Below are positions 24,584-62,016 of a stretch of 64,000 bases of DNA, one piece after another. The stretch is from an uncultured Planctomycetales bacterium (GTDB lineage Bacteria > Omnitrophota > Gorgyraeia > Gygaellales > JAHJCI01): contig CAZQEY010000003.1 of assembly GCA_964592485.1 (NCBI GenBank), forward strand, positions 12,218 to 76,217. The letters run 5' to 3'. A program made the translations under genes and the position numbers. Position 1 is the first letter of the stretch, and each line of letters starts with the position of its first letter. Below the pieces are notes generated by a model. It did not search any database. It was given only the letters and a program-made list of their open reading frames with translations, and was not told where the DNA came from.

Positions 24584-24618
24584 CAGAGACGTTTTCCGGT
24601 TCAAACTGGAAACTGCAC
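24584..24618 (+). promoter_or_regulatory. Hairpin motif X1 of a 6-copy family (CAGAGACG-TTTTCC-loop-GGAAA-CTG)
   Basis: Stem TTTCC/GGAAA closed by CAG...CTG, 32 nt after giant-gene stop; same architecture as leader motifs A, C, D. Confidence 0.4.
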
Positions 24619-24632
24619 CTTCAAGCACAGCG

Positions 24633-24672
24633 CAGAGGCAGTTTCCCGATTGGGGTGGAAAGCGTCTGTAAA
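24633..24672 (+). promoter_or_regulatory. Leader motif A: CAGAGGCAGTTTCCCGATTGGGGTGGAAAGCGTCTGTAAAGAG, 20 nt upstream of membrane-protein gene
   Basis: Near-identical copy at 25334-25375 (motif C) and related copy at 25908-25950 (D); stem changes compensate (TTTCC/GGAAA; TTTCCCG/CGGGAAA; UUUCC/GGGAG with wobble) suggesting RNA hairpin in 5'UTR. Confidence 0.45.
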
Positions 24673-24775
24673 GAGAAAGGAGTGAGGCAAGATGAAAGTA
24701 ATGGATTCTAAAATACAAATTGGACCAATAATCCTTGGTATAAAAGCGTCTGTAAGGAGAAAGAAACGAGGTAAG

Positions 24776-25264
24776 ATGAAAGTAATGGATTCCAAAATAC
24801 CAATTGGATTAATAATCCTTAGTATAGCAGCAATCCTGATGGATTGTTATGTTGGATATGCATTTTTTCTAATGCTGGCAATGTCCCCAGCAGTTTATTT
24901 GTCTCCCATATTATTTTTAGCTATATCACTTTTCTTATTGCTACTTTTTATCAGCTCCATCATCGGTTTATTCCGATTAAAGAGATGGGCATACAATACA
25001 TTCGTTATGCTGACGTTAGTATTTAATTCATTATCACTTTTAATGGATATGGAGTATTTTATTAGAAGCGGGTATATTACTCTACAGACTCCACAGGTTT
25101 TCCTGATAGCTTTCATCGTAATATTTCTCTTTTATTTCCTTAAGCCCTCGACAAGCAGCTTGTTTGGGAAAAAAGAAGAATGTGGAATAAGAAACCCAAT
25201 ATCTCACCTCGCAGGTGCATGCAAAGGCATTAAGCAGGCAAGACAGAGACGCCTTCCGGTTTAA
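24776..25264 (+). CDS. Small integral membrane protein (about 162 aa, 4 predicted TM helices), paralog 1 of tandem pair; ORF can be extended to 24692 by an 84-nt duplicated chimeric 5' segment
   Basis: ORF with strong SD AGGAGTGAGG upstream (copy of leader); hydrophobic segments LIILSIAAILMDCYVGYAFFLML, ILFLAISLFLLLLFISSIIGLF, AYNTFVMLTLVFNSLSLLM, VFLIAFIVIFLFYFL; 78% identical to downstream paralog. Confidence 0.7.
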   Translation: MKVMDSKIPIGLIILSIAAILMDCYVGYAFFLMLAMSPAVYLSPILFLAISLFLLLLFISSIIGLFRLKRWAYNTFVMLTLVFNSLSLLMDMEYFIRSGYITLQTPQVFLIAFIVIFLFYFLKPSTSSLFGKKEECGIRNPISHLAGACKGIKQARQRRLPV

Positions 25265-25291
25265 AGCAAAGCGAAGCGGAAAGCGTCCTTG
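25244..25291 (+). promoter_or_regulatory. Hairpin motif X2 (CAGAGACG-CCTTCC-loop-GGAAAG) overlapping 3' end of membrane-protein gene 1
   Basis: Same CAGAGACG head and YTTCC...GGAAA stem as X1 and leaders A/C/D. Confidence 0.35.
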
Positions 25292-25333
25292 AGTATAGAA
25301 ATTGATAAAAAACACCTTCCAACACAACGTAAA

Positions 25334-25375
25334 AGCAGTTTCCCGATTGGCGGGAAAGCGTCTGTAGGGTGTAAA
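25334..25375 (+). promoter_or_regulatory. Leader motif C (GCAGTTTCCCGATTGGCGGGAAAGCGTCTGTAGGG) upstream of membrane-protein gene 2
   Basis: See motif A; followed by identical SD AGGAGTGAGGCAAGATG. Confidence 0.45.
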
Positions 25376-25394
25376 GAGAAAGGAGTGAGGCAAG

Positions 25395-25832
25395 ATGAAA
25401 CTGATGAACCCTAAAATACCAATTGGATTGATAATACTTAGTATAGTAGCAATCCTGATGGACTGTTATGCCGGATATGCATTTTTTATTATGTTAGCAA
25501 GGCATACAGCAGTTTATGTATCCCCCATATTATTTTTAGCTACATCACTTTTCTTATCGGTAGTTTTTATTATTCCCATCATTGGTTTGTTCCGATTAAA
25601 GAGATGGGCATACAATACATTCGTTATGCTGACATTGATATTTAATTCGTTGTTACTTTTAATGGATATGGAGTATTTTATTAGAAAAGGGTATATTACT
25701 CTACAGGCTCCACAGGTTTTCCTGATAGCTTTCATCGTAATATTTCTCTTTTATTTCCTTAAGCCCTCGACAAGCAGCTTGTTTGAAAAAAAAGAAGAGT
25801 GCAGAGTAAGAGACCAATATTACATCTGGTAG
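25395..25832 (+). CDS. Small integral membrane protein (145 aa, 4 TM), paralog 2 of tandem pair
   Basis: ORF, SD, 4 hydrophobic helices; LFRLKRWAYNTFVMLTL and C-terminal FLKPSTSSLF conserved with paralog 1. Confidence 0.75.
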   Translation: MKLMNPKIPIGLIILSIVAILMDCYAGYAFFIMLARHTAVYVSPILFLATSLFLSVVFIIPIIGLFRLKRWAYNTFVMLTLIFNSLLLLMDMEYFIRKGYITLQAPQVFLIAFIVIFLFYFLKPSTSSLFEKKEECRVRDQYYIW

Positions 25833-25907
25833 GATGACGCAAAGGCATCAAGCATCATTTATTAGATAATGGAAGAATGAAAGAAAAAAGATATCTTCCA
25901 ACGCAAT

Positions 25908-25950
25908 GCAGAGACAGTTTCCTGATTGGCGTGGGAGGCGTCTGTAAGGG
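25908..25950 (+). promoter_or_regulatory. Leader motif D (CAGAGACAGTTTCCTGATTGGCGTGGGAGGCGTCTGTAAGGGG) upstream of PilZ gene
   Basis: Third full copy of leader; not followed by a membrane-protein paralog but by the PilZ gene about 135 nt downstream. Confidence 0.4.
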
Positions 25951-32679: not shown

Positions 32680-35054
32680 TGTTTAAATCCAAAATCCAAA
32701 ATCCAAAATCCAAAATAAATTCAAAATCTAAATGTCAAATTCCAAAACGTGAGTTTTATCATTTGGTGTCTGTGCTTTGTCATTATTTTGTCATTTGTGC
32801 TTTGTTATTTGTCATTTATCTTGGAAATTCTTTCGCTCAGGATAGACCGCCTTCCAAGGAACTAGTCGTCAAGGCATGGGAGGCGCACGGAAGAAATGAT
32901 ATTGAAAGCACCTTTAAAATTACTCAGCAATGTATTGATTTATACCTTGAGGAAGCAAAAAGACAACAAGCGTCTTTAAATGCGCTACCCAAGGGGACGG
33001 ATATTGCTAATTATCAGATTCTTAATGATGTGGCTACTTGCTATTTTATTCAAGGTGAATCTTATATGCGACAAGAGAAATTCCCCGAGGCAGTTGAGGT
33101 TTTTAATACTATTATCCAGCAATATTCCTTTGCCCAGGCCTGGGATCCCCGGGGATGGTACTGGCAAATAGCCAAGGCAGCCAAAGACAGTATTGATAAG
33201 ATTCAGAAACGCCAACTTCCGCCGGCACCGGAAGAAGTCAAACAGCCGCCCACCAAGAAGATAGTTAGTACGGTCGTCTTATCCGATCCGGGCAGTAAAG
33301 ATTTCGTTGATTATACTAAATATGGTGAGTTTAAGAACCGCGGTAGTAAGGATTATGTTTACATTATTAGCGACCAAGTAGGATTAAGCAAGGCCGTCGG
33401 TGAAGGAATTTACCCCAATACTGGTTCGGTAAGGCGCAACCCGAGATTTAAGTTTGTACGGGAAGAGGGAAGACTGGAAGGCTCTGCTTGGGATTTTTTA
33501 CAAAGCTCGGATTTGGAGGCGGCATTTTTTAAATGGGCAACTGCTCCTGAACCAGTGGGTGTGAGGCTTTTTTACACCGGATTGATTCTGGAAAAGGCAG
33601 GATTAATCAAGCATGCGCTAAAATGCTACTATGCTATTGTGGTGCATTTTCCTGGTAGCTATGGCTGGACCTATTGGCATACCCCTTGGTATGTAGGTCA
33701 GGCGGCAATTGCCAAGATAAATTTTCTTTTGCGCCGCAACCCCCAATTAAAGTACAGACTCGTTGATGCCCATATTAAAATCATCAATGGTTATGACAAT
33801 GATGTTTCTAACGATATTGTTATTACTAATCCAGGAAGATGGGTACGTGGGAGGCAAGAAGTAAGAGGTAAAACACAGGAGGCAAGAAATAAGAAGGTTG
33901 AAAAGATAATCGGAGATGGGAGGGTTCGACTGCTTCAATATCAAAATGGAGATTGGCAGCTACAGGTAAAAGGTCAACCCTATATTATCAAAGGCATCAC
34001 TTATGCTCCCACCAAGGTATGTCAATCGCCAGATGAGGGAACCTTGGGAAATTGGATGTTTGAGGATTTTGATAATAACGACAAAATAGATGGCCCTTAC
34101 GATGCCTTTGTGGATAAGAACAGGAATAATCTTCAAGATGAGGATGAGCCCTCTATTGGAGATTTTAAGCTTATGCAGCAGATGGGAGTAAATACCATAC
34201 GTATTTATCATCATCCGCAGGAGGTTAATAAACAATTATTGAGGGATTTGTATATACATTATGGGATTATGGTGATTATGGGAGATTTTTTAGGAAAGTA
34301 TGCTTTAGGCTCGGGGGTGTCCTGGTATGAAGGGACAGATTATCGTAATCCAGAGCACCAGAAGAATATGATTAAGTCAGTAACAGCTATGGTTGAAGAA
34401 TTTAGAGATGAGCCGTATATCTTATTCTGGTTGCTGGGCAATGAGAATGTTTACGGCGTTGCCTGTAATGCTGATAAGGACCCAGAAGGATTTTTTAAAT
34501 TTGTCAATGAGGCAGCTACTACGATTAAATCCCTTGATCCTGAACATCCAGTGGCTCTGGGTAATGGCGACATTCTATTCTTAGATGTATTTGCTAAGCA
34601 TTGCCCAGATATTGACATCTTCGGTACGAATGCCTATCGGGGTGATTATGGCTTTGGATATCTCTGGCAGGCAGTTAAGGAAGAGATAGATAGACCGGTA
34701 TTTATCACTGAATTTGGCTGTCCAGCTTATGCTGAAGGTAAAACAAGAGAAGAATCCGAGCAGTTACAGGCAGAGTATCACCGTGCAGCCTGGGAGGATA
34801 TTGAGTATAATATATCTGGCGGTAAAGGGTTGGGTAATGCTATAGGAGGCATAATTTTTGAATGGTTAGATGAATGGTGGAAGGCCTATGAGCCGTGTTT
34901 GCATGATTATAAGCCCCTATGGGCAGGTCCTTTTCCTGATGGTTATATGCATGAGGAATGGCTGGGTTTAGCCAGCCAGGGTAATAGTTCCCAGAGTCCG
35001 TTCTTGCGTCAGTTGCGCAAGGCTTATTATATGTATAAAAAGATGTGGAGGTAA
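32676..35054 (+). CDS. Membrane-anchored TPR-like + clan GH-A (GH5/GH2-like TIM-barrel) glycoside hydrolase, 792 aa
   Basis: N-terminal TM helix; catalytic-type motifs FWLLGNENVY (acid/base NE) and VFITEFGCPAY (nucleophile E); paralogous to 36750-37988 (IRIYHHP / VRFYKVG, ILGNENNY, VVISEFGADSY, FEWLDEWWK / FEWTDEWWK). Confidence 0.6.
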   Translation: MMFKSKIQNPKSKINSKSKCQIPKREFYHLVSVLCHYFVICALLFVIYLGNSFAQDRPPSKELVVKAWEAHGRNDIESTFKITQQCIDLYLEEAKRQQASLNALPKGTDIANYQILNDVATCYFIQGESYMRQEKFPEAVEVFNTIIQQYSFAQAWDPRGWYWQIAKAAKDSIDKIQKRQLPPAPEEVKQPPTKKIVSTVVLSDPGSKDFVDYTKYGEFKNRGSKDYVYIISDQVGLSKAVGEGIYPNTGSVRRNPRFKFVREEGRLEGSAWDFLQSSDLEAAFFKWATAPEPVGVRLFYTGLILEKAGLIKHALKCYYAIVVHFPGSYGWTYWHTPWYVGQAAIAKINFLLRRNPQLKYRLVDAHIKIINGYDNDVSNDIVITNPGRWVRGRQEVRGKTQEARNKKVEKIIGDGRVRLLQYQNGDWQLQVKGQPYIIKGITYAPTKVCQSPDEGTLGNWMFEDFDNNDKIDGPYDAFVDKNRNNLQDEDEPSIGDFKLMQQMGVNTIRIYHHPQEVNKQLLRDLYIHYGIMVIMGDFLGKYALGSGVSWYEGTDYRNPEHQKNMIKSVTAMVEEFRDEPYILFWLLGNENVYGVACNADKDPEGFFKFVNEAATTIKSLDPEHPVALGNGDILFLDVFAKHCPDIDIFGTNAYRGDYGFGYLWQAVKEEIDRPVFITEFGCPAYAEGKTREESEQLQAEYHRAAWEDIEYNISGGKGLGNAIGGIIFEWLDEWWKAYEPCLHDYKPLWAGPFPDGYMHEEWLGLASQGNSSQSPFLRQLRKAYYMYKKMWR
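32688..32723 (+). repeat. Heptanucleotide microsatellite (AAAATCC)x~4-5 inside the first codons of the 32676 CDS
   Basis: Sequence AAATCCAAAATCCAAAATCCAAAATCCAAAAT read directly; unit length 7 is not a multiple of 3. Confidence 0.8.
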
Positions 35055-35124
35055 ATGACGACATAATTTATGGAGCCTGTCTGTGGGATAGGTAGGCGTA
35101 AGTGAACATAAGTTATATGTTGGA

Positions 35125-35188
35125 ATTTTACCCCACCCTTTCAACAAAGTAGCATAGTGTAGGGTAAGAAGAGGCGGGGTTTAATTCG
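35125..35188 (+). repeat. REP-like palindromic element copy 1 (TTTTACCCCACCCTTTCAACAAAGTAGCATAGTGTAGGGTAAGAAGAGGCGGGGTTTAA)
   Basis: Shares CAAAGTAGC...TAGGGTAAGAAG...GCGGGGTTTAA with copies at 41826, 50995, 53072, 58490; flanked by 15-bp inverted repeat GTGAACATAAGTTAT / ATAACTTATGTTCAC. Confidence 0.6.
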
Positions 35189-35202
35189 CATAATAACTTA
35201 TG

Positions 35203-35240
35203 TTCACTCCGTTTAGAAATCTTTGATTTCTAAACGGAGT
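35203..35240 (+). terminator. Perfect 16-bp stem-loop ACTCCGTTTAGAAATC-TTT-GATTTCTAAACGGAGT (terminator-like, no T-run)
   Basis: Exact inverted repeat read from sequence downstream of GH gene. Confidence 0.35.
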
Positions 35241-35399
35241 TCACTGGCGCACCATAAGTTGTGTGTTCAGAGGGTTGCTCAAAAAAGTCATTTAATTCTC
35301 CGATGGAAAAGTGGAGGCGAGGTTTAAAAAGACCAAAATAATTTCCCGACGAGAAAATAGTTTTGAGCAAGGCTCTGTTTATTGAAGGAGGTGTAAAAG

Positions 35400-39572: not shown

Positions 39573-39885
39573 GATTCTTTTGTAAGAGGAATATAATTTT
39601 CTTCTCTCCAGGGGGATGTCTCATCTTCGATAAAGTCCTTGACCCCGCGCCTTTTATCTATTAAAATATTAAAATACAAACTAATAATAGGATTGCAGAT
39701 TATCCTTTGACTTGGACTCGGTCCTTCGATAAACTCAGGACTGAGTCCTGAGCGTAGTCGAATGGACTCAGGATAACCTGTTCTGGGTTTATCGAAGGGC
39801 AGATTAAATAGAGCTATTATCGAGGTTTTGCACTTCTTACAGATAAACGCAGGATAAGGTTAAGCGGGTGCAGGATGGAGAGACT

Positions 39886-41825: not shown

Positions 41826-41885
41826 CTGAATTTGACCACCCCCTTCAATAAAGTAACATAAGTGAAAGTAAGAAGATGAGTTTCA
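41826..41885 (+). repeat. REP-like element copy 2 (degenerate; right arm lost)
   Basis: TTTGACCACCCCCTTCAATAAAGTAACATAAGTGAAAGTAAGAAGATGAG aligns with copy 1 over ~50 nt. Confidence 0.45.
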
Positions 41886-42070
41886 GTTCGCTGCGCATCT
41901 TTTTGTTATGAAGTGTCTGTTTGTAGTAGGGGGGGCGGGATTACAATTTTATTATGGATAAGATAGGTTATGCGACAAAAGAGAAGATGCGGGATGAATG
42001 ATGCTGGCAGGGATAAATACAATTTATTGTATAGTATAAATGATAAAGCCCTATATGTAGTATCTTTTTC

Positions 42071-46598: not shown

Positions 46599-46679
46599 AA
46601 ACTTACGCAACGAAGTGAACGTAATCCTTCGATTTTACTCAGGATTATGTCCTGAGCAGAACCGAAGGACGTAAGTTTG
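46599..46679 (+). repeat. Nested palindrome (AAACTTACG...CCTTCG...CTCAGGA-TTATG-TCCTGAG...CGAAGG...CGTAAGTTT); homolog of element at 39722-39799
   Basis: Three concentric inverted repeats read from sequence; related copy 39722-39799 (CCTTCGATAAACTCAGGACTGAGTCCTGAGCG...GTTTATCGAAGG). Confidence 0.55.
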
Positions 46680-46737
46680 TTGATTGAATTTATCTCTCGC
46701 AGCCGAGAGCTGTAATTGCCGCTCGGGAGCAATTCGC

Positions 46738-46795
46738 CCCGCCCTTTTGGGTCGTCTACGTCGAGTTTAACAAACCAAAAGGGCGGGGCTCATTG
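46738..46795 (+). repeat. REP-like variant CCCCGCCCTTTTGG-N28-CCAAAAGGGCGGGG immediately upstream of lrp SD
   Basis: Perfect 14-bp inverted repeat; arms resemble CCCCGCACCTT family. Confidence 0.5.
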
Positions 46796-50655: not shown

Positions 50656-51771
50656 ATGTCAGAAATCTACTATTCATCAGCAGCACAATGGGAGGGTTTC
50701 TTAATCGAGTTGAGGCAGTCTTTCCGCGTTTATCTGCCCCGAGCAAAAGACGACGATTATCTCTATGAAGAATACAACCCCCCACACCAAAATTATCGGT
50801 ATGGGGGTAAAGACTCAGGGTTTTTCAGTTTTAATTCCTACCGACCGGTTCAACCAATAAAATCCTTTCTATTCTATTCTAAAGAAAAGGTTGCCCAGGG
50901 TTTTGTCAAATCCTCATTGCCAGAGCCTATCCCCACGGTAGTAGTGGGGTTAAAGAACTGCGATTTGCATTCTTTGAAGGTGCAGGATTATGTGTTTACC
51001 CCGCACCTTCTCCAAAGTAGCGCAGGATTAGGGCAAGAAGGTGCGGGGTTTAAGGAAGGCATCGAGGACGACCCGTTATATAAACAAAAGAGAGAAAACA
51101 CAATTCTTATTTCCGGCGACTGCACTGGTTTTAAAGAGGTCTGCTTCTGTCTTGCCCTTGAGGTCTTACCGCATCCAGTAGAGGGATTTGATTTGAATCT
51201 TTCTCCTTTAACCGATGGATTCTTGGTTGAGGTTGGCTCTAAGCGCGGCAAGGAGTTGATTGAGAAATATCAGAAATATTTTATCAAGGCGAAGGAATCA
51301 CAGATTAGTGCCAGAGATTCCAAACGACAGAATATAATTAATGAATTAACCACCCGCCTTAGTGAAAAAAACTTGCCCAAAAAAGAGATATTACAGAAAA
51401 TTGTCAAACAGGGTTATAATGCCAGTACCTGGCAGGATTTTTGTCTTAACTGTGTAGAGTGCGGCGCCTGTAATTTTGTCTGTTGCACTTGTCATTGTTT
51501 TCTCTTAACTGATACCCAGGATAAAGATAGATATCCACGCTTGCGCATCTGGGATTCTTGCCAATACGCGAATTTTGCCCGGGTTGCCGGAGGGGCGAAT
51601 CCCTTAAAGAGGAGACAGCAACGCCTGAGGAATCGCTTTTTAAAGAAGTTTGATTTCTTTGTTGATAATCTGGGGATGCCAGCTTGTGAGGGATGCGGCA
51701 GGTGCATTGAGGCTTGCCCAGCAAAGATTGATATCAGGGAGGTCCTAAAGGATTTAGCAAAAAATGCTTAA
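50656..51771 (+). CDS. Fe-S subunit of HydB/AsrA type (sulfhydrogenase beta / anaerobic sulfite reductase subunit A-like), 371 aa; carries an apparent in-frame REP-like insertion at 50995-51054
   Basis: C-terminal CxxCxxCxxxC clusters (CLNCVECGACNFVCCTCHC; CEGCGRCIEACP); followed by HydG/AsrB-like partner. Confidence 0.6.
   Translation: MSEIYYSSAAQWEGFLIELRQSFRVYLPRAKDDDYLYEEYNPPHQNYRYGGKDSGFFSFNSYRPVQPIKSFLFYSKEKVAQGFVKSSLPEPIPTVVVGLKNCDLHSLKVQDYVFTPHLLQSSAGLGQEGAGFKEGIEDDPLYKQKRENTILISGDCTGFKEVCFCLALEVLPHPVEGFDLNLSPLTDGFLVEVGSKRGKELIEKYQKYFIKAKESQISARDSKRQNIINELTTRLSEKNLPKKEILQKIVKQGYNASTWQDFCLNCVECGACNFVCCTCHCFLLTDTQDKDRYPRLRIWDSCQYANFARVAGGANPLKRRQQRLRNRFLKKFDFFVDNLGMPACEGCGRCIEACPAKIDIREVLKDLAKNA
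50995..51054 (+). repeat. REP-like element copy 3 (TTTACCCCGCACCTTCTCCAAAGTAGCGCAGGATTAGGGCAAGAAGGTGCGGGGTTTAAGG) located inside CDS 50656-51771
   Basis: Perfect 13-bp arms CCCCGCACCTTCT / AGAAGGTGCGGGG; interior nearly identical to intergenic copy 1. Confidence 0.6.
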
Positions 51772-52573
51772 TATATATCAGCCTTTGCCAATACTAGTTG
51801 AGGAGATAATTGAAGAAACCCCTACGATAAAGACCTTTGTCTTGCGTCCCGAAGAGGATTTTAGTTTCAATACCGGACAGTTCGTAGAATTAGGCTTAGC
51901 CGGCTTAGGTGAGGCTCCGTTTACTCCCTCATCTGACCCAAATATAAAAGAGAGATTAGAGATAACCATTATGAATGTTGGCAGCTTGACCTTGCAGCTG
52001 CATTCTTTGAACAAAAATACTCGCTTAGGTATTCGCGGGCCTTTTGGCAAGGGGTATCCCTTGGAAGAATTTAAGGGCAGGGAGATTGTTATTGTTGGCG
52101 GTGGGGTAGGGTTGGCGCCTTTGCGCTCATTATTGTTGAGTCTGTTTTCAGAACTTGGCCAATACAAAAAGGTATTATTAAGGTATGGCGCGCGCACGCC
52201 CAAGGATATGCTCTACCGCAGCCTTCTGGGTAAATGGGCTAAAAAAATTGATGTGGTAACTACTGTAGATGCAGCTGAAAAGGGATATAAGGGCAACGTC
52301 GGTCTGGTAACCACAATATTAAAGGATTTTCCTGTTGATGTTAAACAAGCGGTTGCGGTTGTCTGCGGGCCACCAATAATGATGAAATTTACCACTTTAA
52401 AACTTCTTGATTTAGGGTTTAGTTCATCAAATATATATCTTTCTATGGAGAAGAATATGTCCTGCGGCTTAGGAAAATGCGGTCATTGCCGGATTGGTAG
52501 ATACTACGTGTGCAAGGATGGTCCGGTATTTACCTATGCTCAATTGCAGGATATACCGGATATTTGGGATTGA
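51764..52573 (+). CDS. FAD/NAD(P)H-binding 2Fe-2S oxidoreductase subunit (HydG / AsrB / PyrK family)
   Basis: Ferredoxin-reductase-type fold (RPEEDFSFNTGQFVEL; GGGVGLAPL) plus C-terminal CGLGKCGHCRIGRYYVCKDGPVF 2Fe-2S motif. Confidence 0.7.
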   Translation: MLNIYQPLPILVEEIIEETPTIKTFVLRPEEDFSFNTGQFVELGLAGLGEAPFTPSSDPNIKERLEITIMNVGSLTLQLHSLNKNTRLGIRGPFGKGYPLEEFKGREIVIVGGGVGLAPLRSLLLSLFSELGQYKKVLLRYGARTPKDMLYRSLLGKWAKKIDVVTTVDAAEKGYKGNVGLVTTILKDFPVDVKQAVAVVCGPPIMMKFTTLKLLDLGFSSSNIYLSMEKNMSCGLGKCGHCRIGRYYVCKDGPVFTYAQLQDIPDIWD

Positions 52574-52578
52574 TTCAT

Positions 52579-53070
52579 ATGAAGAGACTATTTGTTGATT
52601 TAGAAGTCTGTAACAAATGTCCTGAATGCGTGGTAAAGTGTAGTTACTTTTATCATCCCCAGAATAACGGTATCGCCAATTTACGCGAGTATGCTACCTT
52701 TGCCCTTTATTGCCGGCAGTGCGAGGAGGCTCCTTGCGTTAATGCCTGTTATCATGAGGCATTGGAAAAACAAGTAGATGGGACTCTCAAGCGTTATAAG
52801 ATGCGCTGCACCAGTTGTAAATCCTGTAGTATTGCCTGTCCGTTTGGCACAATATTTCCTGATTTTATCCCTTATCTGGACTCAAGATGCGATTATTGTG
52901 TAGGCGTAACAAAAGAGTTACCCGAATGTATTCTCACCTGTCCCTACAAGGCAGTGGAAATAAAGGAGATTAAGGAAAACCCCGAGGCAGACATCTATTT
53001 TGTGGGTAAGAACCTGGCTGTGCATTCGCGTAAGTGGGTCAAGGAAGAGGTTAGTCAAAAGAAAAAATGA
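52579..53070 (+). CDS. 4Fe-4S dicluster electron-transfer protein (HycB/HydN-like)
   Basis: Multiple Cys-rich ferredoxin motifs (CNKCPECVVKC; CRQCEEAPCVNAC; CTSCKSCSIACP; CDYCVG...CILTCP). Confidence 0.6.
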   Translation: MKRLFVDLEVCNKCPECVVKCSYFYHPQNNGIANLREYATFALYCRQCEEAPCVNACYHEALEKQVDGTLKRYKMRCTSCKSCSIACPFGTIFPDFIPYLDSRCDYCVGVTKELPECILTCPYKAVEIKEIKENPEADIYFVGKNLAVHSRKWVKEEVSQKKK

Positions 53071-53071
53071 C

Positions 53072-53172
53072 CCCGCACCTTCTTAATATTTACAATTCAT
53101 TTTTAATAAAGGTGTAGGGTTAAAAGATATATAGATAATAAAATTAAGAATAAAAGAGAAGGTGCGGGGTGA
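53072..53172 (+). repeat. REP-like element copy 4 (arms ACCCCGCACCTTCTT / AAGAAGGTGCGGGGT separated by ~70 nt AT-rich)
   Basis: Read directly; right arm overlaps SD/GTG start of nuoH-like gene. Confidence 0.55.
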
Positions 53173-54077
53173 TATTATTTAACTACTTAATCTTTCCCGG
53201 ATTTTTATTCAGTGCAATCATTGGTTTGATTGCCGGATGGGTTGACCGTAAGGTCACAGCACGGATTCAATGGCGGGTTGGTCCGCCCTGGTATCAGAAC
53301 TTCGTCGATTTCTTAAAACTTCTGGGCAAAGAAACAATCCTGCCGCGAAGTAGTAAATTTACATTCTTACTTGTCCCTCTGCTGGGATTAATCTCAGTTA
53401 CGCTGGTTGCCACTATTGTGGGAAGACTGTTAATGAATCCTGCCGAATCCTTTTTAGGGGATTTGATAGTGGTGTTATATCTGTTGATAATACCGGCGAT
53501 TGCCTTAATCCTGGGGGGCAGCGCTTCCGGTAATCCCCTGGCTTCTACTGGCGTATCCAGGGAGATGAAGTTGGTTCTGGCTTATGAGCTCCCCTTTATT
53601 CTGGCGGTGATTACTGTAATGATAAAAGCAGGAAACACAATCAGATTGGGCGAGATTCTTGCTTATCAGATAGGTAATGGCGCGATGTTGGGGTCGGTCT
53701 CAGGATGGCTGGCCTTTATTGTTGCAATATTATGTATGCAGGCAAAACTGGGATTGGTTCCCTTTGATGTTTCTGAAGCTGAACAGGAGATTATGTCCGG
53801 AGTACTTATTGAGTATTCAGGATTTACTCTGGCAATATTTAAACTGATGAAATCAATACTTCTGTATGTTATGCCTTTATTTTTAATCAGCCTGTTCTGG
53901 GCAGCAAATATAGGAGTCCTTTCCTTGGTTGGTAAATATGTTGCCTTACTGGTCATCATTATCTTGATTAAGAATACCAGTCCCCGCTTAAGGATTGACC
54001 AAGCATTTAAGTTTTTCTGGGGACCGATTACAGTCCTCGCAGTTATAGCAGTAATTTCAGCCCTGCTCGGGCTGTAA
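53169..54077 (+). CDS. Membrane subunit of group 4 [NiFe] hydrogenase / complex I NuoH family (MbhM/HycD/EchB-like)
   Basis: 8 TM helices; GWVDRKVTARIQWRVGPP and GNPLASTGVSREMKLVLAYELPF match NuoH signatures; GTG start. Confidence 0.75.
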   Translation: MILFNYLIFPGFLFSAIIGLIAGWVDRKVTARIQWRVGPPWYQNFVDFLKLLGKETILPRSSKFTFLLVPLLGLISVTLVATIVGRLLMNPAESFLGDLIVVLYLLIIPAIALILGGSASGNPLASTGVSREMKLVLAYELPFILAVITVMIKAGNTIRLGEILAYQIGNGAMLGSVSGWLAFIVAILCMQAKLGLVPFDVSEAEQEIMSGVLIEYSGFTLAIFKLMKSILLYVMPLFLISLFWAANIGVLSLVGKYVALLVIIILIKNTSPRLRIDQAFKFFWGPITVLAVIAVISALLGL

Positions 54078-54100
54078 TAGTTGACAGTTGTCAGAAAAAT

Positions 54101-54529
54101 ATGAACTTAAAACTAAAGGCACTAACTAAGTCTCTGTGGGTATTTCACTTATGCATTGGGGGGTCCTGCAATAATTGCGATATTGAGATTCTGGATTTAT
54201 TAACCCCTCGATATGATGTGGAGAGATTTGGGTTAATGCTTGTAGGTAGTATTCGCCATGCAGATGTGCTCTTAATCACTGGCTCATTGTCCAGAAAGGC
54301 AGCACCAAGGGCAAAGAGGCTTTATGAACAGATGCCCAAGCCAGGGGTAGTAGTTGCGGTTGGCTCCTGCGCTTTGGGTCGGGGGATATTTAAAGATGGC
54401 TATAATACACCTTGTCCCTTAGATGAGTTAATTCCTGTGGACCTATATATACCCGGCTGTCCTCCCAAGCCTGAGGCAATGATTAACGGGATAGTAAAGT
54501 TAATTAAAAAAGTCAAAGGCGAAAAATAA
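54101..54529 (+). CDS. Hydrogenase small subunit, NuoB family (MbhJ/EchC-like)
   Basis: CIGGSCNNCDIE ... GSCA ... PGCPPKPE (4 Cys of proximal 4Fe-4S). Confidence 0.85.
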   Translation: MNLKLKALTKSLWVFHLCIGGSCNNCDIEILDLLTPRYDVERFGLMLVGSIRHADVLLITGSLSRKAAPRAKRLYEQMPKPGVVVAVGSCALGRGIFKDGYNTPCPLDELIPVDLYIPGCPPKPEAMINGIVKLIKKVKGEK

Positions 54530-54963
54530 TGTCTATACTGGATGAGATCAAGCAGAGATTGAAGGATAAAATAAGCGATTGGTATGAGCATAATCAGCGC
54601 AGGATATATTTCAGCGCGGATAAGAAGGATATCAGGCAGGTAGCCAGCGTTCTGTTCAAAGACTTGGGGTTAAGGTATGTCATCGCCAGTGGCATAGATA
54701 CCCCTAAAGGTTTTGAGATATTATATCATTTCAGTTTTGATAAAACCGGTCAAATAATATCTGTGCGCGTGCTTATTGAGGACAAGCAGAATCCAGAGAT
54801 TGATTCCTTAGCAGTTATATCTCCTGCCTTTGAATGGATTGAGCGGGAGATGTGGGAGATGCTGGGGATTAAATTTAGCGGCCATCCCAATCTGAAACGC
54901 TTGTTATTGGCTGAGGACTGGCCGGAGGGAGATTATCCATTGAGGTGTAAGCGTGAGCCATAA
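54529..54963 (+). CDS. NuoC-family subunit (MbhK-like, 30 kDa subunit homolog)
   Basis: Size 144 aa, position between NuoB-like and NuoD-like genes, ERExWEMxGIxF motif. Confidence 0.7.
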   Translation: MSILDEIKQRLKDKISDWYEHNQRRIYFSADKKDIRQVASVLFKDLGLRYVIASGIDTPKGFEILYHFSFDKTGQIISVRVLIEDKQNPEIDSLAVISPAFEWIEREMWEMLGIKFSGHPNLKRLLLAEDWPEGDYPLRCKREP

Positions 54964-56137
54964 GGTTGTAATTCCCATAGGTCCGTATCATCCCCTTCAA
55001 GAAGAGCCGGAGTTCTTCCAGCTGTTTGTAGAAGGGGAAAAGGTGGTTGATATTGATATTACTATTGGTTATAACCACCGGGGAATCGAGAAAATATGCG
55101 AGTCAAAGCATTTTGACCAGGTTCCCTTTGTAGTGGAGCGCATCTGTGGAATCTGCTCAACCTCTCATCCCTTTGCCTGTGTTAATGCTATAGAGGACTT
55201 AGCAAAGATTAAGGTGCCAGAGAGGGCACTTTATATCCGCACGATTATTGCTGAGATGGAAAGGATACACAGTCATCTTTTATGGCTTGGTTTAGCCGGA
55301 CACTTTATTGGTTACAATACTGTGTGGATGTGGGCTTGGAGGTATCGCGAACCATTGCTTGATTGCTTTGAGATGATTTCAGGTAATAGAAATCATTATG
55401 CAATGATGAAGGCAGGAGGGGTGAGGAGGGATATTCAGAATGAACATATACCCAAGCTAAAAAAGATGCTGGATGAGATGAATCGGGCTCTGGATATGTT
55501 CAAGGGAGCGGTAATGGATGACCCGGTGATTCATTCGCGCCTAAAAGGAATTGGTATTTTAACTCACAAACAGGCAATTGACTGGTCGGTAGTCGGACCA
55601 ACTGCGCGAGCCTCAGGAGTGAATATTGATGTGCGTCGTGACGACCCCTATGGTGCATACGATAAAGTTGACTGGAATGTAATTGTCCTGAAAGAAGGAG
55701 ATGTTTTTGCCAAGACAGTGGTGCGCATATTGGAGATGTATGAGTCAATCCGGATTATTCGTCAGTGTCTGGATAGGATGCCCAAAGGCGAGATTGATGC
55801 TAATGTAAAGGACATACCGCCTGGGGAAGGGATTGGTCGTGCTGAGGCACCGCGGGGAGAAGTGTTTCACTATGTCAGAAGCGATGGCACAAACCGTCCG
55901 ATAAGGTACAAGGTACGTGCCCCCAGTTATATGAACGTTGCCTCTAATAAGATTGCTGCTGTAGGGGCAACGATTTCTGATGCCACAATCACCCTTGCGG
56001 CGGTTGATCCCTGTTATTGTTGCACAGAAAGGGTAGCGGTAATACAAAAGCCTTCTAATAAAAAGATATTAAACGGTTGGGATTTGATTAAGCTTTCTCA
56101 GGAGAAGACCAGGAGGTTGCGGGGAGATAATGGATAA
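54953..56137 (+). CDS. Group 4 [NiFe]-hydrogenase large (catalytic) subunit, NuoD family (MbhL/EchE-like)
   Basis: N-terminal L1 motif RICGICSTSH and C-terminal L2 motif DPCYCCTER (Ni-Fe ligand cysteine pairs); GTG start with GAGGTG SD. Confidence 0.85.
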   Translation: MSHKVVIPIGPYHPLQEEPEFFQLFVEGEKVVDIDITIGYNHRGIEKICESKHFDQVPFVVERICGICSTSHPFACVNAIEDLAKIKVPERALYIRTIIAEMERIHSHLLWLGLAGHFIGYNTVWMWAWRYREPLLDCFEMISGNRNHYAMMKAGGVRRDIQNEHIPKLKKMLDEMNRALDMFKGAVMDDPVIHSRLKGIGILTHKQAIDWSVVGPTARASGVNIDVRRDDPYGAYDKVDWNVIVLKEGDVFAKTVVRILEMYESIRIIRQCLDRMPKGEIDANVKDIPPGEGIGRAEAPRGEVFHYVRSDGTNRPIRYKVRAPSYMNVASNKIAAVGATISDATITLAAVDPCYCCTERVAVIQKPSNKKILNGWDLIKLSQEKTRRLRGDNG

Positions 56138-56747
56138 GCTCGTTTCCATAAGAGAGCAGATAAACCAGATGGCAGAGCTTGCCCACTCAATGCTGGTCAA
56201 TACATTTGAGGGTTTTATAAAGCATGATTTGGATATATTGGGCGGAGTAATCCAGCAGGAGCATAAGCTTAATGATATGGAGAGGTCGTTGAGCTTTGCT
56301 TTGGTAGAGGTTTCCAAGGAAAAATCCAAGGCAGCCGACAAAAGATATATTAGCCTTCTGGCAGAGATAGTCGCTGATTTAGAAGAGATCGGCGATTACG
56401 TCAAGGATATGATTGAGAGGATTGAAATAAAGATAAAAGAGAAATTATTGTTCAGCGAAGAGGCGCTTTCGGAATATAGGCACCTGTATGATGTTGTCCA
56501 GACCGCTTTATCCGATGCCCTGAAATCATTAAAAATGAACGATAAGAACTTTTCCAGAAGGCTGCTGGGCGATGAACAGCATATTGAACGCCTGTTGACC
56601 AGATACAGGGACGCACATACAAAAAGACTTATTGCCGGGGTTTGCGACCCGCGCACAGGGAATATGTTCTTGAATATTTTAGATTTTACTACTCAGGTCT
56701 TTCATCACACAAAAAGCATTGCTGATAATATCCTGGATTTACAATGA
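56130..56747 (+). CDS. PhoU-like domain protein embedded in hydrogenase operon
   Basis: Two-repeat helical bundle with EEIGDYVKDMIERIE resembling PhoU LERIGDHAxNIAE motif; 205 aa. Confidence 0.4.
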   Translation: MDKLVSIREQINQMAELAHSMLVNTFEGFIKHDLDILGGVIQQEHKLNDMERSLSFALVEVSKEKSKAADKRYISLLAEIVADLEEIGDYVKDMIERIEIKIKEKLLFSEEALSEYRHLYDVVQTALSDALKSLKMNDKNFSRRLLGDEQHIERLLTRYRDAHTKRLIAGVCDPRTGNMFLNILDFTTQVFHHTKSIADNILDLQ

Positions 56748-58423
56748 GTGCAAATTTATCTTCACTATTTAAGCTTGATTATCTAAACAGCTTCGTTGTT
56801 CTGGCAATATTTGTTTTCTCTGTTTTGGTTATAATTTATTCTCTAAGATTTATGAGGGGGAAGTCTGGTCTGTTTCAATATTATCTTTGGATAATTTTAA
56901 CTGCGCTTGCCTCAATAGGTACGGTATTAGCGAATAATCTAATCCTGCTTTTGGTCTTCTGGGGTTTTCTTGGTCTTAGCTTATACTTACTTATCAATAT
57001 GGGTGATAAAGATAGCAATCAGGTGGCCAAGAAGACCTTTATTATTATCGGCGGCTCAGATTGTTTAATGCTTCTGGGGATTGCAATTATCTATCATTTA
57101 ACCGGTACATTTCAGATGGATAAGGTTCATCTGGCGGTTAGTGGCTCAGGGTTGACAGTATTGGCTTTTTTATGCTTAGCCATAGCCTGCTTTGCCAAGG
57201 CAGGGGCAATGCCGTTTCATTCCTGGGTTCCTGATTGCGCTGAGTCAGCACCCCTTCCAGTAGTAGCATTCCTACCCGCCTCTTTAGATAAACTTTTAGG
57301 AATCTATCTATTGGCGCGCGTCTGTTTAAATCTATTCGTGATGAATCAGGCAATGAATATATTACTGATGTTGATTGGTGCCTTTACTATTGTGGCAGCA
57401 GTAATGATGGCTTTGGTGCAGCATAATCTTAAAAGATTATTGGGGTATCACGCTGTATCTCAGGTGGGCTATATGGTTTTGGGCATTGGTACAGGTATAC
57501 CTATTGGCATTGCCGGCGGGATATTTCATATGCTCAACAACACTATATATAAATCTTGTTTATTTTTAAGCGGCGGTAATGTTGAGAGTAAGACAAATGC
57601 ATCTGAACTTAACCAACTTGGCGGCTTAGCCAAGATAATGCCGGTTACTTATCTATCCTGTTTGATTGCCAGTCTTTCTATATCAGGAGTTCCTCCATTT
57701 AATGGTTTTGTTTCCAAATGGATGGTTTATCAAGGGTTGATTTCTAAACTACAGGTTACAAGTTACGGGTTAAAAATTACAAGTATTTTATGTCTTGTGG
57801 CAGCAATGATTGGTTCAGCCCTGACCTTAGCCAGCTTTATGAAGTTAATTCATGCTACATTCCTTGGTCAGCGCAAAAATACAGTGGTATCAGAACGTCG
57901 CAGCGAAGTTTCTTGGACAATGTGGCTTCCCTGTCTGATATTGGCAGGCATCTGTGTGCTATTCGGCGTCTTTGCTTACCAGATTCCCTTAAGGCATTTC
58001 ATTCTTCCCTCCCTAATCCCTAACTACTATCTACAACCTACTGAATTTTTAGGCTTCTGGTCTCCTGGTTTAGCCACCATGTTGATAATTGTCGGACTAA
58101 TATTGGGTCTAATTATATTTAAATTAAGTAAGTTAAAATTGTCAATTCGTGAGGATGCACCCTTTATTGGCGGCGAGACAGCAGTATTGGAGCAAAGTAG
58201 GGTTTCCGGAACAGAGTTTTACAATACAGTAAAAGAAATAAATATCCTGAGCAAAATCTATAAGCTTGCTGAAGGCAAATTCTTTGATATATATGACCAA
58301 GGCCAAAGAATGGTCTTTGGGCTGACAGGTATTTTACGTAATCTGCATAATGGAGTCCTGCCCACATATATGGTCTGGTGTCTTCTGGGAATGATGGTGA
58401 TGTTTTTTCTAATAAGCAGATAA
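56744..58423 (+). CDS. Proton/sodium-translocating antiporter-like subunit, NuoL/MrpA/MbhH family
   Basis: 559 aa, ~16 TM; FHMLNNTIYKSCLFLSGG, conserved antiporter motifs. Confidence 0.8.
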   Translation: MSANLSSLFKLDYLNSFVVLAIFVFSVLVIIYSLRFMRGKSGLFQYYLWIILTALASIGTVLANNLILLLVFWGFLGLSLYLLINMGDKDSNQVAKKTFIIIGGSDCLMLLGIAIIYHLTGTFQMDKVHLAVSGSGLTVLAFLCLAIACFAKAGAMPFHSWVPDCAESAPLPVVAFLPASLDKLLGIYLLARVCLNLFVMNQAMNILLMLIGAFTIVAAVMMALVQHNLKRLLGYHAVSQVGYMVLGIGTGIPIGIAGGIFHMLNNTIYKSCLFLSGGNVESKTNASELNQLGGLAKIMPVTYLSCLIASLSISGVPPFNGFVSKWMVYQGLISKLQVTSYGLKITSILCLVAAMIGSALTLASFMKLIHATFLGQRKNTVVSERRSEVSWTMWLPCLILAGICVLFGVFAYQIPLRHFILPSLIPNYYLQPTEFLGFWSPGLATMLIIVGLILGLIIFKLSKLKLSIREDAPFIGGETAVLEQSRVSGTEFYNTVKEINILSKIYKLAEGKFFDIYDQGQRMVFGLTGILRNLHNGVLPTYMVWCLLGMMVMFFLISR

Positions 58424-58489
58424 CTTACGGAGCTCTGAAAGAGCGACGTAAGTTATAGCCCCTAGATATACTCAGGGCGTCTGCGAATT

Positions 58490-58555
58490 AGACCCCGCAC
58501 CTTTCTACTGCGTAGAGACACTTCGTAGCAAAAAGGTGCGGGGTAAGTTCGACCG
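58490..58555 (+). repeat. REP-like element copy 5 (ACCCCGCACCTTTCT...AAAAAGGTGCGGGGTAA) plus adjacent AAACTTACG...CGTAAGTTT hairpin
   Basis: Read directly in 177-nt gap inside the mbh/mrp operon. Confidence 0.55.
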
Positions 58556-58600
58556 ACAAACTTACGTTCACTTAGTTCCGTAAGTTTGGGTCTCACTTAG

Positions 58601-59566: not shown

Positions 59567-59616
59567 TGCTTCAACTTTGCTCAGCATCATGGTGAGCGAG
59601 TGAAGCGAGTCGAACT

Positions 59617-62009: not shown

Positions 62010-62016
62010 TTTTGTT

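Follow-up and report, generated by a model that had tools for sequence, protein, structure and literature searches.

Hairpin elements inserting at TNNA sites in an Omnitrophota genome, and their probable derivation from minimal units carrying a GIY-YIG nuclease

Introduction

Ssn proteins are hairpin-guided, single-strand-specific GIY-YIG nucleases, a family defined by its SRM repeat (Chenal et al. 2025, Nat Commun, PMC11893778). They consist of a single GIY-YIG domain of about 90 amino acids (CDD family cd10448), cleave single-stranded DNA in a sequence-specific way beside the hairpin, and are encoded between copies of the repeat; SRM/NTS repeats, which include dRS3/NTS of Neisseria, are also dispersed through the genome, and the NTS/Ssn pair of Neisseria modulates transformation (PMC11893778). 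An IS-like nature was offered as a hypothesis only, no 4-bp duplication, filled and empty sites or in-frame insertions being reported, and the role of the nuclease outside Neisseria and the mobility of the gene-between-repeats unit were left open (PMC11893778).

Several other systems share traits with the elements described here. Bacterial MITEs resemble them in having terminal inverted repeats (TIRs) and a target-site duplication (TSD), in being small, ORF-less and present in many copies, and in inserting occasionally in frame, as MITEs of Coxiella reportedly do. However, the MITEs known to us all derive from DDE insertion sequences, whereas the present elements, at 30–72 nt, are unusually small and their ORF-bearing relatives carry a GIY-YIG nuclease, with no recognised transposase parent in the sampled loci. 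The Rickettsia palindromic elements (RPEs), reportedly described by Ogata et al. in 2000 as repeats of about 100–150 bp confined to Rickettsia, are likewise short palindromes that encode no transposase and lie in frame within conserved housekeeping genes, adding a peptide without destroying the protein; the host here belongs to Omnitrophota, and the likeness is one of description. REPs make no target duplication, have a conserved tetranucleotide 5' of their imperfect palindrome (20–40 nt) and are partnered with RAYT transposases. REP/BIME repeats are similar to our elements as extragenic GC-rich palindromes arranged in mosaics, probably recognised as single-stranded hairpins, and differ in that target duplications, a GIY-YIG rather than an HUH protein, and copies in coding regions are found here. 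Finally, GIY-YIG homing endonucleases such as I-TevI and the Seg proteins also place this catalytic domain on a selfish element, but the present proteins have no DNA-binding domain, intron or homology-dependent homing site, and inverted-repeat ends and target duplications are present instead.

A family of hairpin repeats in the window

The whole stretch of DNA analysed (the window) comprises 64 kb of a Candidatus Omnitrophota genome. Its repeats are built of two inverted arms of 11–13 bp starting with CCCC (CCCCGCACCTT...AAGGTGCGGGG) and a short variable loop, 30–100 nt in total. The 11-mer arm CCCCGCACCTT, with at most one mismatch, was matched 8 times in the window versus 0.83 expected, a number reached by none of 100 shuffles of the window. 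Six of the eight matches are exact and pair up as three inverted pairs with perfect stems of 12–13 bp (copies A, D and E), whose predicted RNA folds range from −29 to −32 kcal/mol (z −4.9 to −6.5). The family is real, with at least six copies per 64 kb, each ORF-less. The features referred to below are as follows.

35053–35262, + strand: composite B, several hairpins in a unit of about 200 nt
35127–35183, + strand: copy B, TTTA + degenerate 49-nt A-subtype hairpin (35131–35179) + TTTA, intergenic
39643–39653, + strand: left arm on its own (CCCCGCGCCTT), TTGA before it, right arm not recognisable
41832–41886, + strand: copy C (hairpin 41836–41881), decayed A-type (CCACCCCCTTCAATAAAGTAACATAAGTGAAAGTAAGAAGATGAG), flanked by TTGA and TTTCA
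46737–46788, no strand assigned: variant hairpin (CCCCGCCCTTTTGG...CCAAAAGGGCGGGG), 14-bp arms, fold −33.6 kcal/mol
50656–51771, + strand: host gene, 371-aa Fer4_22 Fe-S protein, sulfhydrogenase-beta-like
50778–50807, + strand: second mini-hairpin (CCCCCCACACCAAAATTATCGGTATGGGGG), in frame in the same Fe-S gene
50995–51052, + strand: copy A, TTTA + 50-nt hairpin (50999–51048) + TTTA, in frame; perfect 13-bp arms (CCCCGCACCTTCT/AGAAGGTGCGGGG), RNA fold −29 kcal/mol, z −5.3
53067–53173, no strand assigned: copy E, 99-nt element (53071–53169) with perfect outer arms
58413–58600, + strand: composite D, several hairpins in a unit of about 180 nt (58417–58596) between TAAG and TTAG
58489–58547, no strand assigned: copy D (hairpin 58493–58543), 51 nt, with a different interior (CTACTGCGTAGAGACACTTCGTAGCA), flanked by TAGA and TAAG

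The copies and the variant hairpin listed by a first-pass annotation of this DNA were all present where it had placed them or a few bases away, and the small palindromes that it described beside them were found as well (I11, I12 and I20). The interior that it took to be common to the copies (CAAAGTAGC...TAGGGYAAGAAG) belongs to A and B and, weakly, to C, and the interiors of D and E are different; the intergenic placement that it gave applies to copy B and not to copy A, which lies in frame within the ORF at 50656–51771. A-type copies occupy at least two sites in the window, and likewise in L119. Copy B was matched by the A-type profile (nhmmer E=1.4e-13), has a weak fold (−14 kcal/mol) and carries a stop codon in the reading frame used by A, and the likeness of copy C to A and B, which is under the nhmmer threshold, was seen by eye only. 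Copy D folds at −31.6 kcal/mol (z −6.5), and D-type interiors 90–92% identical to it occur in L044 and L093. Copy E contains an extra, degenerate right arm (AAAGGTGTAGGG), a two-right-arm layout also present in L004, L063, L087, L092 and L116.

The whole window had no Rfam match at the gathering thresholds, and the two composite regions, searched at E≤1, gave no credible one, leaving a known RNA family unsupported. A tRNA-like origin was rejected, the window being without tRNA genes. Intrinsic terminators were also rejected: the hairpins lack a U-tract and are directly followed on the 3' side by TTTA, TAAG or TGAT, and copy A is located within an ORF.

Filled and empty sites

Orthologous loci provided both states of several insertion sites. 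For copy A, the filled site reads GTATTTA[50 nt]TTTAAGG and the empty orthologues read GTATTTAAGG, which reveals a 4-bp TTTA duplication; the site is empty in L123 and L124 (GTATTTAAGG/GTATTTAATG) and filled in the window, L118, L119, L121 and L122. The empty site of copy E in L124 is aaATGAaatt, the duplication being (A)TGA. At the position of composite D, L123 has the uninterrupted junction ctgagATGAttg, and L118 is filled with swapped hairpin modules between TGAG and TTAG. Second-site insertions were also observed: the same Fe-S gene of another lineage (P0012/L123) carries a copy at a different site, and L119 contains an additional A-type copy where the window genes overlap. Across all loci, identical 4-mers flank 56 of 122 copies, versus 7.5 ± 2.5 in permutations (maximum 18), and 66% of the flanks conform to T-N-N-A. 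The hairpin elements are mobile and insert at T-N-N-A sites with duplication of those 4 bp. That they are present in some orthologous operons and absent from others suggests selfish insertion and not a conserved regulatory part. The description "REP/MITE-like" given to them earlier was apt in its MITE part, in view of the TIRs, the several copies, the 4-bp duplication and the exact filled and empty sites; the REP part suits them badly, target duplications being present and the ORF-bearing relatives (see below) carrying a GIY-YIG nuclease.

Spread of the hairpin and survival inside genes

A search pattern of 22 specified bases, for which about one chance match was estimated in 596 Gb, found the same hairpin in at least 117 contigs; Omnitrophota, CPR and Planctomycetota are among the phyla represented. 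The family thus extends beyond the window, and no copy adjoins a conventional transposase, as the ends of an ordinary insertion sequence would. Such elements had been called unexpected in a streamlined genome; in fact the family is common in small-genome lineages, e.g. CPR and Omnitrophota. A phage vector was considered and rejected, the exact pattern being present in 0 of 2.9 million viral contigs.

Thirteen of 123 copies lie within ORFs that are open for at least 50 codons on each side, the host proteins being PGK, a GHMP kinase, MoaA, the pol III delta-prime subunit, LplA, a HIT protein and a radical-SAM activase. The element length plus 4 is divisible by three in 12 of these 13 copies versus 39 of the 110 located elsewhere (binomial p=1.7e-5). 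Within genes, copies last only if element plus duplication amounts to a multiple of three and is free of stops, and a host protein with an in-frame copy would gain a short loop. In the window this predicted loop has 18 aa and belongs to the hydrogenase-associated Fe-S protein, whose gene is the first of a group-4-type [NiFe]-hydrogenase/Mrp operon. Copy A encodes TPHLLQSSAGLGQEGAGF there, element and duplication adding 18 codons, and the insert is probably translated, judging from its open frame and the conservation of that frame. Apart from two insertions the Fe-S protein is intact, with all conserved Cys motifs kept (3441 homologues). At ATGA stop/start overlaps both genes are preserved in another way: the duplication restores the stop of the upstream gene and the last G of the element followed by TG restores the start of the downstream one. 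Copy E occupies such an overlap, its left TGA being the stop of gene 52510–53070 and its last G plus TG forming the GTG start (53169) of a NuoH-like gene.

Units with the same ends that encode a GIY-YIG nuclease

In longer units of 264–340 bp, which have the same ends and flanking duplications as the hairpins, the only gene encodes a single-domain GIY-YIG nuclease of 84–100 aa. Units of this kind were found in L048, L026, L037, L043, L039, L131, L141, L133 and L149, the L131 element having a length of 264 bp. GIY-YIG is the only Pfam domain in their ORF (E=2e-14), and a weak similarity to a group I intron endonuclease model (E=1.5e-6) is below the cutoff of that model. The gene is built into the ends: its ATG directly follows the left arm, and its last codons (KGAG) can coincide with the right arm, the stop then being provided by the flank. 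This layout of a gene within arms reappears with many diverged arm sequences and in different phyla. ORF-bearing and ORF-less copies are found a few kb apart on one contig in L026, L037, L043 and L048, and in Omnitrophota a GIY-YIG gene lies between two CCCCGCACCTTCT hairpins (L089/L206).

The association was also assessed starting from the protein. Fifty-nine GIY-YIG genes were picked by protein similarity alone, in a search of the loci with a three-sequence alignment, and 28 of the 59 lay tightly between inverted repeats of 13 bp or longer, versus 6 of 174 mismatched controls. Some GIY-YIG subfamilies show direct repeats of 6–7 bp in place of 4 bp. Within the 64-kb window, hmmsearch detected no GIY-YIG gene at E≤10. 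No identical ORF-bearing copies were found at different sites of one genome, because P0142, P0208 and P0237, with 20–50 contigs each, represent a single locus sampled repeatedly. A literature search for the arm sequence, or for GIY-YIG proteins together with TIRs, TSDs or MITEs, retrieved no earlier description.

By blastp, the GIY-YIG proteins are 39% identical to the products of plasmid genes of Azospirillum and Shinella (E 1e-15 and 3e-13). Four canonical SRMs surround each of these genes, CGTCATCCCCGCGAAGGCGGGGATCCAG being an example from Azospirillum. The proteins of the units are thus homologous to those encoded by SRM-flanked genes, probably of Ssn type. The SRM consensus HGTCWYN(0-2)YYVSBRHN(0-5)WNVSBRGN(0-2)RNCYNB recovered the four SRMs round each plasmid homologue and had 0 matches in the window (0.14 expected), so that canonical SRM membership of the window hairpins was rejected. 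The two systems nevertheless share the gene of about 90 codons for a single-domain GIY-YIG protein between GC-rich hairpin repeats that are also scattered over the genome, a gene seen in the relatives and not in the window, and a CCCCGC/GCGGGG stem, present in the Azospirillum SRM and in the window hairpins. By contrast, the arms are here 20–75 nt apart or separated by a whole gene, which indicates that they act as terminal inverted repeats and not as two complete small hairpins. Duplications, filled and empty sites and in-frame coding insertions are further differences, as are the hosts, Omnitrophota and CPR, which are absent from the discussion of the Ssn family (PMC11893778).

Proposed origin and alternatives

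Combined, these observations make it rather probable, in our view, that the palindromes arose from a minimal selfish element, Ssn-like and encoding a GIY-YIG protein, as its ORF-less, MITE-like derivatives. A further step, which we take tentatively, is that the units of 264–340 bp, made of arms and a GIY-YIG gene overlapping them, may themselves be autonomous transposable elements. We infer that the GIY-YIG nuclease is probably the mobilising enzyme. It would recognise the folded arms in single-stranded DNA and cut at the base of the stem, acting in trans from a gene at another place in the genome; the freed hairpin would be joined into a staggered TNNA break by host repair and ligation, producing the 4-bp duplication. 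GIY-YIG enzymes are hydrolytic nucleases, and we know of no strand-transfer activity among them.

A TIR combined with a TSD classically marks the work of a DDE transposase. The hairpins might accordingly be ordinary MITEs whose parent is a conventional DDE insertion sequence, presumably IS1380/piggyBac-like or IS5-like, that has CC... ends and duplicates 4 bp, and the GIY-YIG gene a passenger or a homing endonuclease lodged repeatedly in the loop. TIRs with a TSD of fixed length are the textbook outcome of cut-and-paste transposition, no GIY-YIG nuclease is known to join DNA, and clear bracketing repeats were present at only 28 of the 59 GIY-YIG genes. However, about 1 Mb of element-rich loci contained no transposase-sized ORF between paired ends. 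When arm matches paired 150–5000 bp apart were collected from 125 loci and the ORFs between them inspected, these were ordinary genes and no transposase, and a DDE parent of either type was rejected. The GIY-YIG ORF, moreover, is built into the ends, its ATG adjoining the left arm and its KGAG codons forming the right one, and the gene-in-ends layout recurs over diverged arms and phyla and is matched by the gene-between-repeats layout of the canonical-SRM homologues. We consider this origin unlikely.

Still less likely, in our opinion, is that the hairpins are regulatory parts selected by the host (terminators, attenuators or mRNA stabilisers), no longer or never mobile in this lineage, or that they control single-stranded DNA uptake in the manner of Ssn/NTS. 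Their great stability would suit such a function, as would the location of several between the genes of operons, where start codon, stop codon and an SD-like AAGGTG are in good order, the retention of copy A in five diverged orthologues, and the modulation of transformation by the related NTS/Ssn pair of Neisseria (PMC11893778). Yet the absence of a U-tract and of any Rfam match and the copies within coding sequence do not agree with it, and presence/absence in close orthologous operons, together with the decay of copies B and C, fits neutral or selfish turnover.

Lastly, REP/REPIN-type spread on single-stranded hairpins by a RAYT, an IS200/IS605-like HUH tyrosine transposase, is highly improbable: short GC-rich extragenic palindromes clustering in BIME-like mosaics and GTAG tetranucleotides in the A- and D-type loops recall it, but filled and empty sites display a 4-bp duplication that REP and IS200/IS605 insertion does not make, the ORFs between the ends are GIY-YIG and not Y1 transposases, and GTAG is in the loop instead of 5' of the stem.

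If the derivation from autonomous GIY-YIG units is right, these would be by far the smallest transposable elements known and the first to use a GIY-YIG (Ssn-type) nuclease as transposase. Their hairpin derivatives of 30–70 nt would be a cross-phylum counterpart of the RPEs: in CPR, Omnitrophota and other bacteria they would give essential proteins new peptide loops and would also land in rRNA and tRNA genes. A real relationship of the RPEs to these elements is possible, since Rickettsia is listed among the SRM-rich genomes (PMC11893778). Mobilisation by the nuclease would represent a new enzymatic class in prokaryotic transposition and could explain how palindromic repeats, possibly including those of Rickettsia, enter coding sequences. 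The loci presented here supply the genetic signature that was missing: duplicated targets, exact empty sites, insertions at second sites, and survival within essential genes that is filtered by reading frame. Very small natural units, among them the L131 element of 264 bp, are directly testable. For annotation, unexplained insertions of 10–25 aa in CPR and Omnitrophota proteins, and gaps in operons, may often be such elements.

Composites and a second insertion in the Fe-S gene

Omnitrophota hairpins pile up within one another, generating intergenic composites of about 190 nt. In composite B, an outer end (TAAATGACGAC) is followed by hairpin 1 (ATAATTTATGG..CATAAGTTAT), a GGAATT linker, copy B, AATTCGC and hairpin 3 (ATAACTTATG..), with a nested perfect hairpin of 16 bp at 35206–35240; this module order recurs in L062, L099, L059, L050 and others. 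Composite D is situated between an Mrp-antiporter-like and an MbhD-like gene, and L070 contains an 83% match to it over 107 nt. The variant hairpin, which shows no flanking duplication at 46737–46788, sits where "hairpin 3" would be in a composite-like region (ca. 46599–46795) upstream of an AsnC/Lrp gene. A similar composite in L050 (7750–7950) likewise ends in CTCATTGAAGGAGG just before an ATG and has a CCCCGCACC hairpin in its centre, and TIRs of the CCCCGCCC type bracket a GIY-YIG ORF in L180.

The database gene call for the 371-aa ORF that hosts copy A starts later (P0001, 353 aa), and exact look-up of the ORF gave no match for this reason. The structure model of the protein is poor (mean pLDDT 52), and the inserts, like most of the protein, are of low confidence. 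The second mini-hairpin of this gene corresponds to a 33-nt insertion encoding NPPHQNYRYGG that is unique to the copy of the gene in the window, the orthologues reading GAATACAAAGAC, and its exact duplication is ambiguous. Its arm type matches that of the GIY-YIG elements L167/L174 (TIR CCCCCACACCAAATT).

Hairpin copies in the window

With at most one mismatch, the arm 11-mer CCCCGCACCTT matched the window eight times against 0.83 expected, a count reached by 0 of 100 shuffles of the window; the palindrome family reported in the first-pass annotation is real and well beyond chance. Six of the eight matches were exact and formed three inverted pairs. Direct reading confirmed the copies listed there, at 35055-35399 and at the other positions, as well as the variant hairpin near 46738 and the small accompanying palindromes, and an nhmmer profile of A-type copies recovered copy B (E = 1.4e-13). 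The interior described as conserved was common to copies A, B and C but was not found in the other copies. RNA folding of the intact hairpins gave -29 to -34 kcal/mol (z -4.9 to -6.5).

Hairpins of the window
Copy A, 50999/51048: exact inverted arm pair
Copy E, 53071/53169: exact inverted arm pair
Copy D, 58493/58543: exact inverted arm pair
Copy B, 35131-35179: decayed relative of copy A
Copy C, 41836-41881: decayed relative of copy A
Variant hairpin, 46737-46788: present on direct reading of the sequence

Insertions in and between genes of the hydrogenase operon

Homology, together with Pfam labels assigned to the orthologous operon, identifies region 50656-63700 as a group-4-type [NiFe]-hydrogenase/Mrp-like operon in which sulfhydrogenase beta/gamma-like Fe-S and flavoprotein genes lie upstream of the hydrogenase/Mrp-like genes. 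Close homologues of the window proteins are labelled Candidatus Omnitrophota, one database protein being 100% identical. All copies had been taken as intergenic; copy A, however, falls in frame within ORF 50656-51771 (371 aa, Fer4_22), which reads through it and encodes the peptide TPHLLQSSAGLGQEGAGF. Alignment of 21 orthologues showed this 18-residue insert, identically placed, in four further proteins and no insert at this site in fifteen, one of which (P0012) carries the same peptide ~25 residues upstream. Empty sites read GTATTTAAGG (locus L123) and GTATTTAATG (locus L124), and the filled site GTATTTA[CCCC...50 nt...GGGG]TTTAAGG. These exact junctions identify the mobile unit as the 50-nt hairpin, with TTTA duplicated, and the frame is kept because 50 + 4 = 54 nt. 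The P0012 copy adjoins TTTA followed by CCCCGACC, and its left flank has a 33-nt deletion. A second insertion in the window's Fe-S gene, of 33 nt (NPPHQNYRYGG), is unique to the window copy, absent in all six orthologues examined, and itself a small CCCCCCACACC...GGTATGGGGG hairpin. The orthologue of L121 (P0005) has 10 extra residues, QEKTRSCAQE, beside a Cys-rich motif (alignment A1, columns 308-317), which may be another small in-frame insertion.

At the copy E site, orthologous locus L124 has an overlapping stop/start, aaATGAaatt, and the window aaATGA[99 nt]TGAtatt. The TGA stop of the upstream gene is retained, and the NuoH-like gene downstream acquires a GTG start from the element's last G plus TG. 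Genes also overlap at the empty site of composite D, the multi-hairpin block around copy D, in L123 (ctgagATGAttg); this site holds a 180-205-nt block in the window (TAAG/TTAG flanks) and in L118 (TGAG/TTAG flanks).

In other lineages the Fe-S/NuoH-like junction, occupied by copy E in the window, contains unrelated short repeats or palindromes (L122 4213-4296, L123 4027-4101, L118 3330-3368), including GTCACC/GGTGAC and CGTTATAG/ACGCAATA repeats, and insertions seem to have landed there repeatedly.

Target duplication and reading frame across genomes

When each species was represented by a single genome, CCCCGCACCTT-N(20-50)-AAGGTGCGGGG occurred in at least 117 contigs; chance was estimated to give about one match, for 22 pattern bases, 31 spacings and 596 Gb. 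Among the matches listed were Omnitrophota, Saccharibacteria and other CPR, Planctomycetia/Phycisphaerae, Gammaproteobacteria MAGs and others; interiors of these listed copies were highly variable and T-N-N-A made up 66% of their flanks. The four flanking bases were identical in 56 of 122 copies, compared to 7.5 ± 2.5 (maximum 18) when right flanks were permuted. Being direct repeats (TTCA...TTCA, TGAA...TGAA), such pairs are duplications, not palindrome extensions.

For thirteen copies the surrounding reading frame stayed open over 50 or more codons on either side. Length plus four was divisible by three in 12 of them versus 39 of the 110 others (binomial p = 1.7e-5, Fisher p = 1e-4). The seven host ORFs checked encode phosphoglycerate kinase, GHMP kinase, MoaA, DNA polymerase III delta-prime, lipoate-protein ligase, a HIT protein and a radical-SAM activase. 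This in-frame persistence in genes matches the behaviour described for Rickettsia palindromic elements.

Mobility of the hairpin elements is solidly supported. The loci analysed show inverted arms, duplication of 4 bp at T-N-N-A, polymorphic insertion, frame-filtered persistence in genes, stop and start codons restored at ATGA junctions, and same-ended units carrying only a GIY-YIG gene. The initial REP/MITE-like reading was right in kind (MITE-like) but overlooked the in-frame coding copies and the nuclease link.

GIY-YIG units with the same ends

Inspection of three longer end pairs with matching flanks (L048, L026, L003) revealed a tiny gene in two, L048 and L026, and ORFs of this type were GIY-YIG nucleases (Pfam E = 2e-14).

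GIY-YIG genes in hairpin-selected loci
L048: TTTA-CCCCTCACCTTTT...94-aa ORF...AAAAGGTGAGGGG-TTTA, 298 bp, inserted in a prepilin gene
L026: TATA-CCCCACACCTTTT...ORF...AAAAGGTGTGGGG-TATA, 339 bp
L037: further unit, exact CCCCGCACCTT ends
L043: further unit, SR1 bacterium, 4793-5092
L039: further unit, different arms CCCCGTTAGAGGCC, flanks TATGA/TATGA
L089/L206: Omnitrophota gene between two CCCCGCACCTTCT hairpins

An in-frame TGA falls within the catalytic Y-V-G-V-T motif of the L043 ORF. It makes sense only if read as glycine, as in genetic code 25, and this points to a live gene adapted to its host.

As an unbiased test, 80 metagenome loci were fetched by conserved peptides of the GIY-YIG protein alone; 59 different genes in them had sufficient flanking sequence. 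In 28 of the 59, inverted repeats of 13 bp or more bracketed the gene within 80-90 nt, against 6 of 174 controls in which upstream regions were matched with downstream regions of other loci. Units measured ~250-345 bp, their ends were variations on CCC(C)NCAC, and many had 4-bp direct repeats (e.g. TATA, TTTA, TTGA, TGAA, TATG). In the 264-bp unit of L131, a 12-nt left arm is followed directly by ATG, the right arm forms the ORF's last four codons (KGAG), and the flank supplies the stop TAA. No GIY-YIG gene was found in the 64-kb window by tblastn or hmmsearch.

The ORF-bearing element of L048 (2340-2680) lies in the prepilin leader. Its nuclease ORF, lacking a stop of its own, runs via the right arm into the pilin and recreates a ...KKGEG-FTLTEIL cleavage motif, so that prepilin peptidase could still free mature pilin. 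A GIY-YIG subfamily with arms CCCCTCAC.../...GTGAAGGGG occupies the 5' end of tRNA genes (element ends near L151 2481-2772, L154 2471-2775, L160 2477-2774 and L168 2477-2773), with 7-bp direct repeats CGATTAG, CGGTTAG, CCTATAG and CCCGTAG. CTCA comes after the repeat in three of the four loci, matching a tRNA D-arm, and TAAA in L160; the GGG at the end of the element restores the start of the acceptor stem, leaving the tRNA gene whole. In L207-L216 (e.g. L207 1480-1790), 20-bp arms CCCAGCACCTAACAAGCTTT enclose a GIY-YIG gene of 84 aa that occupies an identical site in ten samples, in a host gene that resembles 23S rRNA on inspection by eye and belongs to a Moranbacteria-like CPR lineage; the arms, when paired, would give a stem that might be trimmed from the rRNA.

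Relation to Ssn nucleases and possible mechanism

The Ssn nucleases consist of a single GIY-YIG domain of ~94 aa (CDD cd10448) and cleave single-stranded DNA beside a specific repeated hairpin, which is NTS/dRS3 in Neisseria and is termed SRM in its general form (Chenal et al. 2025, PMC11893778). SRMs lie on both sides of 42% of ssn genes, a layout likened by those authors to an IS, and number in the hundreds in certain genomes, Rickettsia and Wolbachia among them (PMC11893778). That paper shows neither duplication nor mobility and does not mention coding insertions, CPR or Omnitrophota (PMC11893778). Literature searches brought up no description of the arm sequence, nor of GIY-YIG enzymes with terminal inverted repeats, target-site duplications or MITEs.

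A GIY-YIG query matched Azospirillum and Shinella plasmid genes (39% identity, blastp E 1e-15 and 3e-13), each flanked by four canonical SRMs, e.g. CGTCATCCCCGCGAAGGCGGGGATCCAG in Azospirillum, whose CCCCGC/GCGGGG stem is common to the window's hairpins. Since the SRM consensus had 0 matches in the window (0.14 expected) and the GIY-YIG proteins matched solved UPF0213 and SLX1 structures weakly, the elements are treated as a variant related to Ssn/SRM, not as a tested member.

Ssn-type enzymes bind a hairpin that has folded in single-stranded DNA, and their cut falls a few bases upstream of it (PMC11893778). An Ssn-like enzyme encoded elsewhere in the genome may release the folded element, which host functions would then insert into a staggered break. 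Joining is the weakest step of this putative enzymology, because no DNA-joining activity is known for GIY-YIG enzymes. The main rival is that a conventional DDE transposase, encoded outside the sampled loci, moves the elements; within those loci, no pair of these ends enclosed a transposase-sized gene.

Composite blocks and other repeats

In Omnitrophota loci the CCCC hairpin is usually central in a conserved ~190-nt block, to which copies B and D belong and whose modules are swapped between orthologous sites.

Composite architecture and positions
Outer ends: TAAATGAnGAC / GTCnTCATTTA
Hairpin 1, after the left outer end: ..ACTTATGG-loop-CATAAGT..
After hairpin 1: GTCYGCGAATT, then the CCCC hairpin
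After the CCCC hairpin: AATTCGGAC, then hairpin 3
In the window: 35053-35262, 46599-46795, 58413-58600
Other Omnitrophota loci: L050, L059, L062, L099, L105, L110

Stems of hairpins 1 and 3 vary in sequence among loci while complementarity is kept. The composites had no Rfam match, and may be either an undescribed structured RNA or insertions nested in the centres of palindromes.

The intergenic region of copy B contains a further 17-bp inverted-repeat pair, CAGAGGGTTGCTCAAAA/TTTTGAGCAAGGCTCTG (35268-35377, span 110 nt), with no second copy in the window or any fetched locus. At 24587-25950 lie three tandem ~619-bp units, 79-88% identical. Each opens with an SD-like sequence plus ATG and a small hydrophobic ORF, and a 30-nt imperfect inverted repeat stands ahead of each unit.
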